Shown: positions 26,212 through 38,180 of the stretch, one piece after another | Position numbering within the stretch: position 1 is the first letter of the stretch | Layout: every line of letters starts with the position of its first letter | DNA from: Myxococcota bacterium | Lineage (GTDB): Bacteria; Myxococcota_A; UBA9042; PHBI01; JAWLBL01 | NCBI GenBank assembly: GCA_041687695.1 | Contig: JAWLBL010000003.1 | Span: 296,109 to 360,108 of the forward strand | DNA: 64,000 nucleotides | Reading direction: 5' to 3' | The notes under the pieces: model-generated | Databases searched by the model: none | What the model was told of the DNA's origin: nothing | The model's input: the letters and a program-made list of their open reading frames with translations, nothing else | Position numbers and translations under genes: made by a program

Positions 26212-27894
26212 CTACTCGAAGCAGGCCGGGTCGGCGGCGTCGTGGAAGCGGACGATGAGGCCGTGGGTGGGCGAGAAGCTGGTGCCGTTGTCGCCGCCCA
26301 CGATGAGGCCCGAGTCGCAGGCGGTGTTGGGGCGCCAGTCGACCGAGTGGAGGTACTGGCTGCCCGAGTTGCCGAACCAGGGGGCCTTGTCGAAGGCGGG
26401 GATGGACTGGTCGACGAAGGCGCCCGTGTCCAGGTTGGGGAGCCAGCCGCCGCGGTACTCGACGACGCTGGCGTAGTCGACGATGGCCTTGCCGACGATG
26501 AGGGCGCGGGTGCCGTCGGGCTTCCAGCCGATGCCCTGGGGGCCCATGCCGGTGGGCAGCGGGAGCGTGGCCATGGTCCAGGCGCCGTCGAACACGTAGA
26601 CCTTGTTGGACGACCAGCCCGAGACGAAGCCGAACTGGCCGTCCGGGCGCCAGGCGGCGAAGCCGGCGTTGCCGAAGCCGGGGCTCCAGTTGTTGCCGAT
26701 GGGTTGCGTGGTGCCGACCAGCCAGGTCTTGGAGCCGGCGCCGTTGAGGCCTTCGGCGGTGACCACGCCGGGCGCGCCGTAGATGGCGGGATCGAGCCAC
26801 ATCAGATCGATGAGGCCTGCGTTGGCGACGCCCGCGACGACCGGGGCGAGGCCGGTGTCCGGGTGCCAGGGGTAGAGGTAGGTGATGTAGCCGGCGCCGG
26901 GCTTGGCCCAGGTGCCGATGATGGCCGCGCTGGTGCCGGGCTGGACGACGACGGTGACCGGGGTGCCGTTGGTCAGGGTCTCGCGCTCGGTGAAGACCAG
27001 GGCGCCCTCGAGGTCGAGGGCGGCGCTCCAGAGGCGGCCCTTGCCGTCCTTGTGGGTGCCGACGAGGAGGAAGAGGCCGTCGGGGGTGACGTCGAGGTCG
27101 GCGAGGGTGTGTCCGGCCAGGTCGGAGAGGAGGGCGACGGCGCCCGTGGCGGCCTCGTAGCGCAGGATCTGGCCGCCCTTGCCCAGGATGAGGGCGAAGT
27201 CGCCCGAGGGGTGCCAGCGGACGCGGTGGAGGTCGTCGAGGACGAGGAGCTGGTTGACCTTGGTGTACAGGAGGACGCCGGGGTCGTAGGGGTCGGGCTC
27301 GGGGCCGGTGTCGGGTTCGGTGGCCGTGTCGGGGACCGTGGCGGTGTCCGGTTCCGTGGCCGTGTCGGTGGCCGAGTCGGGGACCGTGGCGGTGTCCGTG
27401 GCCGTGTCGGGTTCGGTGGCCGTGTCGGGGACCGTGGCGGTGTCCGGTTCCGTGGCCGTATCGGGGGCCGAGGCCGTGTCGGGCTCGGCCACGGCGTCGG
27501 CCACGGCCACGGCGTCGGGCTCGGCCACGGCGTCGGCCATGGCCACCGAGTCGGGGACCGAGGACGAGTCGGGCTCGCGGGTGTCGGGTTCGGAGGGCAG
27601 GTCGGGGGTCTTGGTGGTGTCCTGAGGGCCCGGGTCGGGGGCGACGTCGGCGGGGACGTCGGTGGTCAGCGTGTCCTCGAAGGTCAGCGGGACGCAGCGG
27701 CCGCCGTGGCAAGGGGCGCCGGGCGGGCAGGCCTGCTCTTGCTCGAAGACGGCGGCGGGCGTGCAGACCATGACGCGGTCACCGTCGCAGACGCGGGCGC
27801 CGCGGGCGCAGGGGCCGTCGGTCGTGGCCGGGTCGTCGCCGCAGGCGAGCAGGGCGGCGGCCAGGGACAGGCTCAACAGGCTTCGGGCGGACAT
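26212..27894 (-). CDS. Lipoprotein with an acidic repeat linker and a C-terminal WD40-like beta-propeller
   Basis: Lipobox LLAC; (P)DTAT(E/V) repeats; blades WHPSG, WRPDG, WKPDG, WRPN. Confidence 0.8.
   Translation of the reverse strand: MSARSLLSLSLAAALLACGDDPATTDGPCARGARVCDGDRVMVCTPAAVFEQEQACPPGAPCHGGRCVPLTFEDTLTTDVPADVAPDPGPQDTTKTPDLPSEPDTREPDSSSVPDSVAMADAVAEPDAVAVADAVAEPDTASAPDTATEPDTATVPDTATEPDTATDTATVPDSATDTATEPDTATVPDTATEPDTGPEPDPYDPGVLLYTKVNQLLVLDDLHRVRWHPSGDFALILGKGGQILRYEAATGAVALLSDLAGHTLADLDVTPDGLFLLVGTHKDGKGRLWSAALDLEGALVFTERETLTNGTPVTVVVQPGTSAAIIGTWAKPGAGYITYLYPWHPDTGLAPVVAGVANAGLIDLMWLDPAIYGAPGVVTAEGLNGAGSKTWLVGTTQPIGNNWSPGFGNAGFAAWRPDGQFGFVSGWSSNKVYVFDGAWTMATLPLPTGMGPQGIGWKPDGTRALIVGKAIVDYASVVEYRGGWLPNLDTGAFVDQSIPAFDKAPWFGNSGSQYLHSVDWRPNTACDSGLIVGGDNGTSFSPTHGLIVRFHDAADPACFE
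27300..27560. repeat. Intragenic tandem repeat with 12/18-bp units encoding EPDTAT / VPDTAT / DAVA
   Basis: Recurrent GTGGCCGTGTCGGGGACC and GTGGCGGTGTCCGGTTCC units. Confidence 0.85.
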
Positions 27895-27936
27895 ACCGGA
27901 CCTCGCGGTGGGGCGAGGCCAGTCTTTATCACGCGG

Positions 27937-27957
27937 GCGTCAGGGCGTCGCGCGGAG
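27937..27957. repeat. Direct repeat copy 1 (copy of the phoU 3' end), distal boundary of the ATPase-HNH cassette
   Basis: GCGTCAGGGCGTCGCGC (27937-27953) identical to 30073-30089; 20/21 when extended by 4 bp. Confidence 0.85.
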
Positions 27958-27960
27958 TCC

Positions 27961-28770
27961 TCACCAGCGCAGCGCTTCGGGTACGCCAGCGAAGAGATCG
28001 AGGAGGCGTCGGTGCGATTCCCATTGGCGCTGCATCTCTCGAAAGACCGAAGGGTGCTGCTTGCCGAGGAGCCCCGTCCTCTTGGCGGCGAGGGCCTGCG
28101 GGGAGGCGCCGTTATCCCGTGCGTCCCGGTAGGCGACGAGAGCGTTGCAATAGTCCTCGAAGGCTTCGCGTCTCGCGCGAGGGAGAACGTCTCGGGTGTT
28201 CAGGCGTAGGACGTCGATCGTGTATTTCGCCCGAGCATGCTGGCGCGTTCCGGGCACCGCCAACGGAACGAAGCGGAACGTTCCCTGCAGATCGAGGATC
28301 ATGAACTCCATCGGGTCATCGCGTCTGGGATCGATCAGGACCTCGTCACCAGCGAGGGGAGGGACCACGGGGTCGTCGCGGCGCCGAGAGACCTCGACCG
28401 GGTCGACCCGGCCCTCGGGAAAGACGGCGAACTGGTTGCTCTTGGGACCGTTGCAGGGGCCGCAGGCGTAGAGATAGTTCGTCCACGCGAAGACGGCCTC
28501 TGGATACAGGTCCTTGGGCCGGATGTGTTCCACCTCGTCGGCCATGCTGTCTTCGCAGTAGCCGCAGCGACGGGCCCCGGCGCACATGCGATCGAGCGTG
28601 GCCTTCACGTCTCGAAAGGCCGCATTCCGCGAAGTGTTCTTGCTCTTGAACTCAGCTTTGGCCGAGGCCACGCGCGCCGGGTAGGCGCCGGCGGCATCGA
28701 CCGTGGTCTGGTATGCGCTCAGCGACTGCAGGGTCGTGGCGTTCGGCGAGAGATTGAGGAGGCGGATCAT
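27961..28770 (-). CDS. HNH endonuclease, PtuB/retron-effector-like
   Basis: RCGYCE..DEVEHIRPK..YPEAVFAWTNYLYACGPCNGPK; LIDPRRDDP; ATG overlaps the ATPase stop (ATGA). Confidence 0.88.
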   Translation of the reverse strand: MIRLLNLSPNATTLQSLSAYQTTVDAAGAYPARVASAKAEFKSKNTSRNAAFRDVKATLDRMCAGARRCGYCEDSMADEVEHIRPKDLYPEAVFAWTNYLYACGPCNGPKSNQFAVFPEGRVDPVEVSRRRDDPVVPPLAGDEVLIDPRRDDPMEFMILDLQGTFRFVPLAVPGTRQHARAKYTIDVLRLNTRDVLPRARREAFEDYCNALVAYRDARDNGASPQALAAKRTGLLGKQHPSVFREMQRQWESHRRLLDLFAGVPEALRW

Positions 28771-30038
28771 TCCTTGGCTGCGTCCGTCGGCAACATGCGC
28801 TTGAGCGCCTCGCGTCGCTCCTCCTCGTCGGGTCGGAGTGAGCTCGATAGCGCGCGGGCATTGAGCCCCGCCAGCTCGTCGAGGAGCTCGTTGGCTTGGT
28901 CGGAGCGCGTCACCCCAGGGCCGAAGACGCCCGTGCCGTAGGCGTCGAGGACGTTGCCATACAGGAGGCGCTGCAGCGCCAGGCCCGTCACCATCTCACC
29001 CTGGTCCTCGCTGGCGGACGCACCCGGCCGCGGGAGTCGGAACACCGTCCCGTGCTCGGCCGCGTGACACACGAGCGGGCTGTGGGTCGACACGATGAAC
29101 TGGACGTTGGGGAAGTGGCGGCGGAACCAGAAGCCGATGGTGCGCTGCCACGTCGGGTGCAAGTGGGCGTCGATCTCGTCGATGAGCACCACACCCGATC
29201 GGAGCACCCGCTCGGCATCGTCCGAGAACAGGCCGGTCGGTCCGAAGGTCAGGGCCATCTGTCGAATGAGTTCGAAGGTCATGCTCAAGATGGAGCGGTA
29301 GCCATCGGACAACGCCTCGACGGGGAGGGGGATCCCATCGGCGTCTTCGAACTCGACCCCCTTGGACGAGATCTCGACCAGCTTCACGCCATGGGGGAGA
29401 AACTCTGGCTGGTTGATGAAAGCTCGGAATGGCTCCAGCAGGTCACCGATCGGATCGTTCTCTAGGGCCTTGAACTTGAGCTCCTTGAGCCAGGCCAGCG
29501 CCTCGGTCAAGGCGACCGACTCGCCGAACACGGACAGGTGACGGGCCAACTTCGGCTGGCTGTAGAACAGCTTCTCGAAGTCCTTGTCGCCACCGGTGAA
29601 GCGCCGAAAGGGTCCGTACGACGCGCAGAACCAGCCGCTGCCATTGCCCCAGACGTGGCGGTCGGGGCTGCCGATGTCCGCGGAGGCGGCGAGCTGGACG
29701 CCGCCCTGGCGCTCGAAGGTGACACCCGTCTGCAGCGCCGAGGCGCGGGGTGTCGTGCCTGAACCGCTGAAGCCGTCATCGGTCTCGGTGCGCTGGAGCC
29801 CGACGCGAATCTCCCCCCGTTCCGTGCCGGCCCGCAGCCACTCCGCCCAGCTCTGACGAAGCCCCAGCGCGTCGCGCGGACCGATGAGGGCCAGGGCGAT
29901 GCTCCTGAGGAAGGTGCTCTTGCCGGCTCCGTTGTCCCCGAGGATGACGTGCCAGCCCGGGCCTGCATCGGCTCCCGGCGTCCAGGTCAGCTCGGGGATC
30001 GAGCGTACGTTCCGAAGCGTGGCACGTGTCAGGAACAT
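28767..30038 (-). CDS. ABC/AAA ATPase, PtuA-like (Septu-type defence)
   Basis: Walker A GDNGAGKST, signature LSDGYRS, Walker B/D-loop LIDEIDAHLHPTWQ, FPNVQFIVSTHSP. Confidence 0.9.
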   Translation of the reverse strand: MFLTRATLRNVRSIPELTWTPGADAGPGWHVILGDNGAGKSTFLRSIALALIGPRDALGLRQSWAEWLRAGTERGEIRVGLQRTETDDGFSGSGTTPRASALQTGVTFERQGGVQLAASADIGSPDRHVWGNGSGWFCASYGPFRRFTGGDKDFEKLFYSQPKLARHLSVFGESVALTEALAWLKELKFKALENDPIGDLLEPFRAFINQPEFLPHGVKLVEISSKGVEFEDADGIPLPVEALSDGYRSILSMTFELIRQMALTFGPTGLFSDDAERVLRSGVVLIDEIDAHLHPTWQRTIGFWFRRHFPNVQFIVSTHSPLVCHAAEHGTVFRLPRPGASASEDQGEMVTGLALQRLLYGNVLDAYGTGVFGPGVTRSDQANELLDELAGLNARALSSSLRPDEEERREALKRMLPTDAAKE

Positions 30039-30072
30039 GGGAGCGTCTCGGGGCTGAGGTGCGTCAGGTGAA

Positions 30073-30093
30073 GCGTCAGGGCGTCGCGCTGAG
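30073..30093. repeat. Direct repeat copy 2, containing the phoU stop codon
   Basis: GCGTCAGGGCGTCGCGCTGAG; TCA at 30076-30078 is the phoU TGA. Confidence 0.85.
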
Positions 30094-30762
30094 CTTGCCG
30101 ACGTGGCGGATGTCCTTGCCCTGGACCATGTAGACGACCTGCTCGGCCAGGTTGGTCGCGTGGTCGCCGATGCGCTCGAGGAACTTGGCGACCGACTGGA
30201 TGTGGATGGCGCGCTCGATGGCCGTGGGGTCGCGCAGCATCAGGGCGAGGAGATCGCGGAAGACGACGCGGTACAGCTCGTCGACCGGGTCGTCGCGCTC
30301 GATGACCTGGCGGGCCTTGACGGGGTCGGAGGCCACGAAGGCGTCGATGGCGTCGCGCACCATGGACTGCGCCAGCTCGGCCATCCGGGGGATGTCCTCG
30401 TAGGGCTTGAGCTGCGGCTCGGCGTTCAGGTCGACGGCGCGCTCGCAGATGTTCACGGCGAGGTCGCCGATGCGCTCGAGGTCCGTCACCATCTTCAGGG
30501 CGAGCGTGATGAAGCGGAGGTCCGAGCCCATCGGCTGGCGCTTGGCGAGGATGAGCAGGCACAGCTCGTCGGTCTCGACCTCGCTGGTGTTGACCTCGCG
30601 GTCGGCCTGGATGGTGGCCCGGGCGAGCTCGCTGTCGCGCTCGACCAGCGCCCGCACGGCGTTGCGGATCATCTCCTCGACGCGGGCGGCCATCATCAGG
30701 ATGCGCTCGCGCAGGAGGTGGAGCTCGCTCTCGAACTCGCGATCGGTGTGTCGTTTCGTCAT
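30076..30762 (-). CDS. phoU: Phosphate signalling protein PhoU
   Basis: QPMGSDLR, DLERIGDLAVNI, KFLERIGDHATNLAEQV. Confidence 0.97.
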   Translation of the reverse strand: MTKRHTDREFESELHLLRERILMMAARVEEMIRNAVRALVERDSELARATIQADREVNTSEVETDELCLLILAKRQPMGSDLRFITLALKMVTDLERIGDLAVNICERAVDLNAEPQLKPYEDIPRMAELAQSMVRDAIDAFVASDPVKARQVIERDDPVDELYRVVFRDLLALMLRDPTAIERAIHIQSVAKFLERIGDHATNLAEQVVYMVQGKDIRHVGKLSATP

Positions 30763-30783
30763 GCGCCCCTCGTGGCACCGAAT

Positions 30784-30801
30784 GTTACCGCGAGATGAAG
30801 C
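30784..30801 (-). promoter_or_regulatory. Weak PHO-box-like site upstream of phoU
   Basis: Minus strand GCTTCAT-CTCG-CGGTAAC, 11-bp periodicity, degenerate. Confidence 0.35.
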
Positions 30802-30853
30802 CGTGGTCTCGATTTCGAGCGCCCGGAGGCGCGCCGTGCGGCCGGAGCGCGCG

Positions 30854-31633
30854 TCACCCGAACTTGCCGGTGATGTACTCCTCGGTGCGCGAGTCGCTCG
30901 GGCCCGTGAAGATCTGGTCGGTCGTGCCGTACTCGATGAGGTCGCCCATCAGGAAGAAGGCCGTCCGGTCCGACACACGCGCCGCCTGCTGCATCGAGTG
31001 GGTCACGATGACGATGGTGACCTGCTCGCGCAGGACGTGGATGAGGTCCTCGATGCGCGCGGTGGCGATGGGGTCGAGGGCCGAGCAGGGCTCGTCCATC
31101 AGCAGCACCTGCGGCTCGACCGCCAGCGAGCGCGCGATGCACAAGCGTTGCTGCTGGCCGCCCGACAGGCTGCCGCCCGGCGCGTCGAGGCGGTCCTTCA
31201 CCTCGTCCCACAGGGCCGCGCGGGTCAGCGCCCGCTCGCACACGTCGGCGGACGTCGCCTTGTCGAGGGTGCGCGTGAGCTTGAGCCCGCTGAGGACGTT
31301 GTCGCGGATGGACATGGTCGGGAAGGGGTTCGGCTTCTGGAAGACCATGCCCACGCGGCGGCGCAGCAGCACCGGGTCGACGTGCTTGCCGTAGATGTCC
31401 TCGCCGTCGAGGGTCACGCGGCCGGTGACGCGCGCCGTCGCGATGAGCTCGTGCATGCGGTTGAGCGTGCGGATGAACGTCGACTTGCCGCAGCCCGAGG
31501 GGCCGATGATGGCGGTGACGCGGCGAGCGGGGATGTCGAGGGAGATGCCCTTCAAGACCTGGTGGGTCCCGAACCAGGCCTGAAGATCGGTGACGCTGAT
31601 CTTGCTGACGGTCGGCGTGTCGCGGTGGGGCAA
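30854..31633 (-). CDS. pstB: Phosphate ABC transporter ATPase
   Basis: TTG start with [53 protein letters not shown]. Confidence 0.97.
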
Positions 31634-34531: not shown

Positions 34532-34565
34532 ACCCTAGGTCCGTCGTGTGACGCGAAGGTGACAG
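34532..34565 (-). promoter_or_regulatory. PHO box and -10 element upstream of pstS
   Basis: Minus strand CTGTCAC-CTTC-GCGTCAC (34548-34565), then 10 nt, then TAGGGT. Confidence 0.75.
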
Positions 34566-35830: not shown

Positions 35831-35864
35831 GTTGTAGGCGGGCTTTGTGACGGGGCGGTGACGC
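35831..35864 (-). promoter_or_regulatory. PHO box and -10 element upstream of the porin
   Basis: Minus strand GCGTCAC-CGCC-CCGTCAC (35847-35864), then 10 nt, then TACAAC. Confidence 0.7.
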
Positions 35865-35875
35865 CGGTGAAGCGG

Positions 35876-37387
35876 CTATGAAAAAGGTGGCGAGAGGGCG
35901 GCGTCGGTGACGGGGGCGTGAAGGTCGGTGACGGGCGCGGAGGGCAGGGCGACCCAGAAGCGCGAGCCGTGGGGGGTGACCGCCTCGACGCCGACCTCGC
36001 CGTCCATGGCCTCGGCGAGGTGCTTGACGATGGCGAGCCCGAGGCCGGTGCCGCCTGTCTCGTGGGACGCGCCGCCGGCGCGCGCGCGGCCGTCGTCGAC
36101 GCGGTAGAAGCGCTCGAAGATGCGGGGGCGGTGGCGCGGGTCGAGGCCCGGGCCGTCGTCGACGACGTCGATGCGGACGAGGGGGGCGGCGTCCGGCGCG
36201 TCGGCGGGGGCGGCGCGGTGGGCGGCGATGACGACGTGGCCGCCGGCGGGGGTGTACTTGAGGGCGTTGGCGACGAGGTTGGTCAGGATCTGATCGAGGG
36301 CCTGCGGGTCGGCCATGGCCCGCAGGTCGGCCGGGACGTCGATGGCGACCTGGATGTGCTTGTCCTCGGCCAGGCTGCCCAGGGCGGAGGCGGTGCGCAG
36401 GGCGGCGCGGCGGAGATCGATGGCGACCGGGGCGATGGCGTACTTGCCGGCCTCGAGGCGGGAGATGTCGAGCAGGCCGCCGATGAGGCGGGTCAGGCGC
36501 TCGGCGTTGCGGTGGATGCCGTCGACGAAGCGGCGGGCGGAGCCGGGGTCGTCCAGGGCGCCGTCGAGCAGGGTCTCGGCGTTGGCGCGGACGATGCTGA
36601 CGGGGGTGCGCAGCTCGTGGGAGACGTTGGCGACGAAGTCGCGGCGGATGCGCTCGAGGCGGCGGATCTCGGTGACGTCGTACAGGACCAGGATGCAGCC
36701 GCGGCCCGACGACAGGGGCGCGGCGTGGGCCAGGACGCGGCGCGGCGCGGGGCGGCCGGGGAGGTCGAGCTCGGCCGAGGCGGTCTGGCCGTCGAGCGCG
36801 CGATCGGCGAGCTGTTGCAGGCCCGGGACGCGCGCGAGCTCGAGCAGGGTGCGGCCGACGGCCTCGCCGCGCAGGCGCAGCCAGTCGACGGCGGTGCGGT
36901 TGACGAGCGTGGCCTGGCAGCCGGCGTCCAGCGCGATGACGGCCTCGCGCATGCTCTCGAGCACGGCCTGGAAGCGGTCGCGCTCGGCGGCCAGGGTCGA
37001 GACGACCCCCTCGAGGGCGTCGGCCAGGCGGTTGAACGAGCCGGCGAGGCCGCCCAGCTCGTCGCCCGTGTGGACCGACAGGCGCCCGGCGCGCTCGCCG
37101 GCCGCCACGGCGCGGGCCTTGTCGACGAGATCGCGCACGGTGCGGGCCATCAGGTGGGCCGCGAGCCCGCTCATGAAGAGCGCCAGCAGGACGCCGATGC
37201 CGGCGCCGACGAAGATCGCGACGCGCAGCGGGCCCATGGCGGCCTCGACGTCGCCGGTGCGGCCGGCGGCGCGCACGATGTCGCGCAGCTCGGTCTCGAG
37301 GTAGACCGCCGTCGCGAGGGCCGCGACGACGACGAGGGCGACCGAGACGGCGAAGAGCTTGCCGCGGATGCCGAGGCGGACGTTCAG
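35876..37387 (-). CDS. phoR: Phosphate regulon sensor kinase (2 TM, HAMP, PAS, HisKA, HATPase); probable CTG start
   Basis: RRDFVANVSHELRTP, NLVANALKY, IFERFYRVD, GTGLGLAIVKH; frame extends upstream through TM1 to CTG 37387, overlapping the phoB TGA, with GAGGAG upstream. Confidence 0.9.
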   Translation of the reverse strand: MNVRLGIRGKLFAVSVALVVVAALATAVYLETELRDIVRAAGRTGDVEAAMGPLRVAIFVGAGIGVLLALFMSGLAAHLMARTVRDLVDKARAVAAGERAGRLSVHTGDELGGLAGSFNRLADALEGVVSTLAAERDRFQAVLESMREAVIALDAGCQATLVNRTAVDWLRLRGEAVGRTLLELARVPGLQQLADRALDGQTASAELDLPGRPAPRRVLAHAAPLSSGRGCILVLYDVTEIRRLERIRRDFVANVSHELRTPVSIVRANAETLLDGALDDPGSARRFVDGIHRNAERLTRLIGGLLDISRLEAGKYAIAPVAIDLRRAALRTASALGSLAEDKHIQVAIDVPADLRAMADPQALDQILTNLVANALKYTPAGGHVVIAAHRAAPADAPDAAPLVRIDVVDDGPGLDPRHRPRIFERFYRVDDGRARAGGASHETGGTGLGLAIVKHLAEAMDGEVGVEAVTPHGSRFWVALPSAPVTDLHAPVTDAALSPPFS

Positions 37388-38145: not shown

Positions 38146-38180
38146 CCCCTACTCTCGCCCGCGTGACAACAGCGTGACGG
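38146..38180 (-). promoter_or_regulatory. PHO box upstream of phoB (autoregulation)
   Basis: Minus strand CCGTCAC-GCTG-TTGTCAC (38163-38180), then 11 nt, then TAGGGG. Confidence 0.7.

Follow-up and report, generated by a model that had tools for sequence, protein, structure and literature searches.

The subject of this study is a two-gene cassette in a 64,000-nucleotide window of the genome of a Myxococcota bacterium (assembly GCA_041687695.1, contig JAWLBL010000003.1, positions 296,109 to 360,108). The window is the whole stretch analysed, and coordinates given without a contig handle refer to it. The cassette consists of ptuA (28767..30038, minus strand), which encodes a 423-aa ATPase of the ABC/AAA type, and ptuB (27961..28770, minus strand), which encodes a 269-aa HNH nuclease. 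It lies between phoU (30076..30762, minus strand) and a lipoprotein-type gene (26212..27894, minus strand), and the 3' end of phoU is present on both sides of it. The general question addressed is how small defence systems without mobility genes enter chromosomes.

A 17-mer from the end of phoU occurs in exact copies at 27937-27953 and 30073-30089, with a spacing of 2136 bp. When extended, the repeat is 20/21 identical (27937-27957 and 30073-30093), and the sequence outside both copies is unrelated. Copy 1 (30073..30093, minus strand) comprises the final five codons of the working phoU gene, its stop codon and 3 nt beyond it. Copy 2 (27937..27957, minus strand) is an orphan phoU end that starts 3 nt after the ptuB stop (27961) and runs on into the 5' region of the host-like lipoprotein gene. 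Only ptuA and ptuB lie between the repeats, both on the minus strand and overlapping by ATGA. An earlier note on this DNA had reported the duplicated 17-mer, its 20/21 extension and the two ATGA-coupled genes, and its coordinates were confirmed. The 17-mer has 3 exact copies in the 7.97-Mb genome, the third in an unrelated context, while the 21-mer with at most one mismatch is found only at the two cassette ends. A multicopy genomic repeat was therefore rejected.

The length of the repeat alone proves little, because such pairs are common in a genome of 73% GC; 392 isolated exact 17-mers lie 1–4 kb apart in the host genome. A stop-including match with the score of the phoU repeat was found in 1/3000 unlinked 15-kb controls, and the phoU repeat also falls 3 nt from the end of the cargo. 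Among 176 inverted repeat pairs, one 23-nt pair (74%; 27958-27980 and 30012-30034) was considered as the border of a transposon or a unit resembling a miniature inverted-repeat transposable element. This candidate was rejected, since the pair lies within coding sequence and does not abut the right repeat, and there is no transposase. The spacer between the phoU stop and the ptuA start (30039..30075, minus strand, 37 nt) contains, 12 bp in, an 8-nt echo of the repeat end (30061-30068, compared with 30073-30080), which is possibly a junction scar.

The product of ptuA matched the PADLOC profile PtuA1 (PDLC00269, E = 4.7e-150) over residues 1-421 as well as AAA_21, and the product of ptuB matched PtuB1 (PDLC00340, E = 5.8e-110) over residues 1-269. 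The earlier note's proposal of a PtuA-like and PtuB-like Septu pair is thus upheld by full-length matches. In PtuA we take residues 34-41 to be the Walker A motif, 243-247 the signature and 283-288 Walker B, followed by H319. The HNH core of PtuB contains CxxC 69-72, H82, N98, CxxC 103-106 and N107. PtuA aligns with PtuA chains in the PDB, including 8ee4, and PtuB with PtuB chains. The genes are adjacent on the same strand with the ATPase gene first and the HNH gene second, which is the gene order of Septu type I. As judged from sequence, the cassette is a predicted stand-alone Septu type I (PtuA/PtuB) anti-phage pair. It shares with Septu type I (PDB 8ee4, 8ee7, 8eea, 8sux) the adjacent ATPase and HNH genes, full-length profile matches, motifs and lack of a reverse transcriptase. 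It differs in that its proteins are far from the solved ones, only the C-terminal part of the ATPase and the HNH core being alignable, and in that the phoU-linked pair appears to have no promoter of its own. The effectors of type I-A retrons (Ec78 and Ec83 PtuAB) are a homologous ATPase and HNH protein; however, PtuA has 423 aa here and 542-552 aa there, and no match to the reverse transcriptase family PF00078 (RVT_1) was found in the host genome, which is 99% complete. A retron Ec78 effector was rejected on this absence and on the cut-offs of NF041760 and NF041761, both of which were missed (102.8 of 500 and 47.1 of 150 bits).

According to the accessible text of PMC12819146, the Septu systems studied so far combine an ABC ATPase with an HNH nuclease, their DNA nicking falls as ATP rises, and stand-alone PtuAB nicks DNA. 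One Septu system cleaves tRNA-Tyr, as stated in the available portion of PMC13096335. By analogy, infection would release PtuB from control by PtuA, and PtuB would then nick DNA or cut tRNA.

The earlier note had also remarked on more A/T-ending codons in the pair and on the lack of an integrase, and both points were borne out. The G+C fraction at third codon positions (GC3) was 0.868 for ptuA and 0.807 for ptuB, compared with 0.957-0.994 for 12 neighbouring genes and 0.99 for a 13th. A GC3 that low is shared by 5.1% (ptuA) and 2.9% (ptuB) of the 5065 called genes of at least 150 codons, taken from 5932 home-made, unvalidated gene calls. The low GC3 therefore points to foreign composition. No recombinase gene or fragment was found in the 2.1-kb cassette in the open reading frame list or by profile scans.

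Relatives of the pair were compared using the best 80 of 110 ptuA loci, 72 of which had an adjacent ptuB. Omission of the 8 loci without ptuB and of 4 with short flanks left 68. A tight repeat around the pair with a score of at least 18 was present in 6/68 relatives and in 1/484 shifted control windows. About five of the six bracketed relatives are independent, because L101 and L103 represent one event. The duplicated ends, named from sequence, belong to modB-like (L038, L041) and htpX-like (L101, L103) genes, to a cyclase-like gene on the other side of the pair (L104), and to others. The L038 repeat is 94/95 identical. Two further repeats lie outside the six counted matches: a 52-bp repeat in L091, where ptuB is broken, and a 13-bp repeat in L056 (Myxococcus eversor), which is below the score threshold. 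A stop cuts ptuA or ptuB short in L055, L086 and L091, which suggests decay after arrival, or assembly error.

Empty sites were found at several of these genes. Among 18 genus relatives compared at the L056 site, the flanks are directly joined in 13, one site is filled and 4 show rearrangement; the three closest relatives (94-96%) have an empty site with one repeat copy. In L055 the pair occupies the L056 site, but no repeat accompanies it. In L229, htpX directly adjoins the sequence found after the L101 remnant, and the remnant resembles the L229 allele. About 4-6 nt are common to htpX and the L104-type sequence after ptuB at the right joint of L101, a single GC-rich and weak case. Across Candidatus Binatia (L101, L103, L104, L226, L228, L229) the interval between htpX and the cyclase gene is empty, holds ptuAB with a right htpX remnant, or holds ptuAB with a left cyclase remnant; this interval is a genuine exchange hotspot, with entry from both sides. 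At modB, ptuAB was not within 1.5 kb in 17/19 loci, and the continuation in L255, L256 and L258 resembles by eye the flank after the L041 remnant. The L041 repeat copies differ by five codon changes, 4/5 of them synonymous. The pair occurs at the same gene in distant lineages and is missing from closer ones (L209, L041). Elsewhere (L269:2127-3260) a modB-like end is duplicated ~1.1 kb downstream behind cargo other than Septu, and 6/6 changes in its last 14 codons are synonymous.

The host genome was scanned for the same layout, defined as a stop-including copy of a gene end with a score of at least 18 within 15 kb downstream. Such duplications were found for 30/5932 called genes, some of the 30 being paralogues or tandem repeats, and for 1/3000 unlinked controls. 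The rate was 5/159 where the next gene had low GC3 and 11/4302 where it was native (Fisher p = 1.7e-4). With the score lowered to at least 16 there were 34 anchors. Sixteen were viewed, and 14 cassette-like cases, phoU included, were picked by hand. In the 20 anchors omitted, the second copy was the end of another gene, no gene lay between the copies, the match was paralogue-like, or the score was 16-17 around native genes (including C2:320990, score 17). The 14 hand-picked cases involve 14 different genes and repeats of 21-292 bp, and in 11/14 the 3' edge lies at most 7 nt from the stop (combined p = 1.3e-5, post hoc).

A second ATPase and PtuB-like pair (C31:18487-21720, locus L292; 449 and 246 aa, GC3 0.81 and 0.75) follows the hsdS gene in a Type I restriction locus, and a perfect 28-bp repeat of the hsdS end brackets it. 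The gap of ~1 kb between hsdS and the ATPase gene contains no called gene, and a Schlafen AlbA_2/RecG-like gene follows the pair. At C6:259620-261790 (L288) the cargo is an AbiE-type antitoxin/toxin pair with an 81-bp copy of the end of a transglutaminase-like gene, followed by barstar-like and Phd-like genes. At C2:79030-82200 (L284) it is an AAA-like gene, called in two pieces, plus a YhcG/PDC-S02 nuclease gene with a 79-bp gene-end copy. Other cargo has no nuclease match: an oxidoreductase and DUF1641 at C21:162810-165380 (L290), with near-native GC3 and an 82-bp repeat at convergent gene ends, and YceI plus CotH in another bracketed cassette on C2. The 292-bp duplication at C22:82230-84520 (L291) is an exception to the stop-anchored pattern, as it extends 220 nt beyond the stop into a tandem-like repeat. 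In the repeat copies on C36, 4/4 codon changes are synonymous.

We propose that ptuAB was probably spliced in by host recombination with the phoU end as homology anchor. The phoU repeat is considered an insertion scar because both occupied and empty sites occur at other genes among relatives of the pair. Host recombination anchored in the flanking gene is suggested by the variable position of the 5' edge, the 3' edge at the stop, the variety of cargo, the large number of targets and the recurrence of one cargo at orthologous genes of distant lineages. Repeats that mostly end at the stop, some of them allelic, argue for a homology anchor rather than breakage. In the proposed series of steps, a donor strain would already have carried ptuAB behind its phoU, and a fragment with the phoU tail and ptuAB would have entered the cell. 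The phoU part of the fragment would have paired with host phoU, and no homology would have been needed to join its other end: the fragment may have been trimmed, recircularised and taken up by one crossover, or a one-sided joint inside phoU may have formed, of the type known from homology-facilitated illegitimate recombination (HFIR). The incoming tail would then complete phoU, and the old tail would stay behind ptuB. Copy 2 would accordingly be the displaced original phoU end, the native copy being assigned from relatives of the pair at other genes. The stop codon would limit the repeat because strains cease to be homologous beyond it, and the 5' edge would be set by the position of the joint or by trimming in a later deletion. 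In this reading the pair travels as a passenger and is not itself a mobile element. The ComEC, DprA and Ku families are present in the host genome, a weak point, as of 14 control genomes 10 also have a match to ComEC and 11 a match to DprA.

Two laboratory and natural systems described in the accessible parts of PMC3240628 (trimmed-circle uptake and HFIR) and PMC5361080 (displacement in a type VI secretion system, T6SS) likewise have a one-sided anchor, an anchor leftover of variable size and no integrase. During E. coli conjugation, 56/60 clones gained a partial anchor duplication by a single crossover of a trimmed circle, and the duplications measured 109-950 bp in 14 sequenced clones (PMC3240628), compared with 21 bp at phoU. 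A similar anchor model with sequential displacement was put forward for Vibrio T6SS effector-immunity arrays (PMC5361080). That process exchanges a portion of the anchor protein, whereas at phoU the anchor gene remains intact and unrelated genes have joined it.

Several observations weigh against a phoU anchor. No tight repeat was found in 62/68 relatives of the pair, and the 13-bp repeat of L056 lies mostly after the stop. Neither an empty phoU site nor a donor was seen among comparison genomes that are all distant (PhoU at most 73%). A repeat of 21 bp is short for a RecA-type crossover, so that the model has to assume either subsequent trimming or a one-sided joint. The phoU copies differ by one mismatch, and this is non-synonymous. 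In the 14 host cases taken together 10/24 changes are synonymous (expected 0.28, p = 0.10), which is no significant synonymous bias, and the cross-genome count of 14/20 is biased by a stopping rule that favours synonymous edges. Classical HFIR, in the portion of PMC3240628 available, yields deletions, not duplications. In 5/14 host repeats there is no coding mismatch, and exact duplication explains these equally. Finally, the anchor model accounts for spread at an established site but not for how the pair first came to lie behind phoU.

Insertion with long target duplication is a known class, which is reportedly also treated in a further study (Nobusato 2000). As given in the accessible text of PMC2853133 (Furuta, Abe and Kobayashi 2010), integrase-free insertion with long, variable target duplication occurs with every restriction type and involves no further mobile genes, and the duplications often span start or stop codons. 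The screen called for restriction (R) and modification (M) genes, an insert of less than 20 kb without other mobile genes, and a duplication of more than 30 bp (20 bp in a second screen). The earlier note's suggestion of something undescribed is thus not supported as to the kind of insertion, since integrase-free insertion with variable target duplication had already been described there. Like that class, the phoU cassette is a small insert without other mobile genes (2.1 kb, two genes) between direct repeats that are non-multicopy and variable in length; repeats often fall at a start or stop codon, and relatives have empty sites, here for the pair at other genes. Unlike it, the cargo at phoU is ptuA and ptuB instead of R and M genes, and non-nuclease cargo is also present in the host genome. 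The phoU repeat of 21 bp with one mismatch is under the 30-bp threshold, the sister cases being longer, and here the stop is where most repeats end, some of them being allelic.

The scar could alternatively be an exact target duplication made by break repair, which we consider unlikely. Staggered nicks or a break near the phoU end would have been repaired in such a way that ptuAB was captured and 21 bp of host DNA were copied, an idea already put forward for restriction-modification genes. No donor phoU is needed, and perhaps the incoming nuclease itself makes the nicks or the break. The available part of PMC2853133 suggests DNA breakage as the shared property, and the nicking activity of stand-alone PtuAB (PMC12819146, as above) agrees with it. 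The five host repeats without coding mismatch and the nearly identical L038 copies also favour this explanation, which accounts for first arrival at a new gene. It predicts neither the stop codon as the usual end of the repeats nor the synonymous differences that resemble those between alleles (C36, L041, L269), and it likewise gives no reason to expect nuclease-free cargo or the same pair at an orthologous gene in distant lineages.

It is less likely still that the cassette is the remnant or satellite of an integrative element, in which an integrase that has since been lost, or that works in trans, integrated a circle with the phoU tail as its attP and the island was later trimmed to two genes. 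Integrase targets in protein genes have an identity block that runs from the crossover to the gene end, so that the gene is restored, and the geometry at phoU matches this. One relative of the pair (L099) lies in an island of that type ended by a tRNA-end repeat, and the host genome has 3 PF00589 and 2 PF00239 recombinase matches. Two of the three tyrosine recombinases are likely native XerC/D, judging by their size and composition (310 and 329 aa, GC3 0.98 and 0.94). Islands that carry an integrase and sit at the 3' ends of protein genes or tRNAs share with the phoU cassette the duplicated and restored target end; in contrast, the cassette has no integrase, and here the targets are many and unrelated and the repeat length varies. 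The 14 targets with blocks of 21-292 bp would demand as many specificities. Of the two routes offered in the earlier note, delivery in trans or by recombination, homology-based recombination fits, whereas an integrase in trans is unlikely because 14 target genes and repeats of such different lengths stand against only five site-specific recombinase matches.

An integrative element would also be expected to reuse its site, and phoU was not reused in the relatives compared, all of them distant. The earlier note had proposed phoU as a special attachment site or cassette-exchange hotspot. This was examined on 101 distant phoU loci, 70 of them with at least 1.2 kb downstream, using stop-including repeats with a score of at least 12. 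A repeat, ptuA, ptuB or the lipoprotein gene was found at 0/101, and phoU as a hotspot was rejected for distant relatives; the rejection is weak for the host's own lineage, where no genome was sampled. The closest PhoU was 73% identical among 41 genomes searched, none of the host's family, and 71% among the best 80 of 327 metagenome matches. Among the papers listed by a search of titles and abstract openings, none named phoU as an island site, with one paper mentioning the word once and the subscription literature mostly uncovered. In sequencing run X1 (share 0.10; depth about 2-4, patchy) one piece spans 30045-30195 unchanged. Among the joints listed from this run there was none of an excised circle or of cassette skipping, at a depth too shallow for this to count as evidence.

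A broader and rather doubtful idea is that a process not yet described, host-encoded or aided by PtuB-like nicking, targets gene ends and builds stop-anchored insertions at arbitrary genes, and that it is a main integrase-free route by which Septu and other defence modules spread between phyla and are placed under the control of host operons, at phoU that of phosphate signalling. Chance similarity of GC-rich sequence, in which case an ordinary double crossover would have replaced the segment from phoU to the lipoprotein gene and so brought in the pair, is very improbable: the abundance of isolated 17-mers, the third copy of the repeat 17-mer and the repeat-free site of L055 speak for it, and the 1/3000 control frequency, the position 3 nt from the cargo end and a geometry shared with longer, unmistakable cases in the same genome speak against it.

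The case extends the scar known from restriction-modification genes to Septu: occupied as well as empty sites are present in several phyla, and one genome has at least 14 sites. Both the Septu system and the type of insertion were known. What is added here is Septu as a further cargo, backed by controls and empty sites, together with a stop-anchored pattern that recurs across one genome. No report of Septu with direct repeats or target duplication was found among the papers listed by the literature searches, which left subscription papers mostly uncovered. The stop-anchored, partly allelic repeats allow a test between homology-anchored uptake and nuclease-driven duplication.

The phoU gene is intact (228 aa, GC3 0.98) and matches PF01895 (E = 1.8e-50) and TIGR02135 (229.6 bits, cut-off 130.25). 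It is the last gene of a phoB-phoR-porin-pstS-pstC-pstA-pstB-phoU cluster, in which the other pst names come from sequence and gene order without a profile scan. No promoter and no terminator match was found in 27700-31000, the promoter scan being for sigma-70 only. The pair may be transcribed by read-through from phoU and may therefore follow phosphate signalling; if so, an anti-phage nuclease would track phosphate status. Repeats of the 7-4-7 form were sought using what we take to be the Pho-box consensus. All 5/5 minus-strand matches in the window lie inside the pho cluster. The match upstream of phoU (30784..30801, minus strand) is the weakest of the five, and those before pstS, the porin gene and phoB (34548-34565, 35847-35864, 35907-35924 and 38163-38180, minus strand) are stronger. 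A conserved Pho box before phoU was rejected, as it was seen in 1/96 relatives and 2/288 controls. On the other side of the cassette, the downstream lipoprotein-type gene encodes 560 aa and is host-like (GC3 0.97), with no Pfam, NCBIfam or PADLOC match. It would follow phoU directly at an empty site. Its repeat linker is a low-complexity segment with an 18-nt period at 27271-27627.

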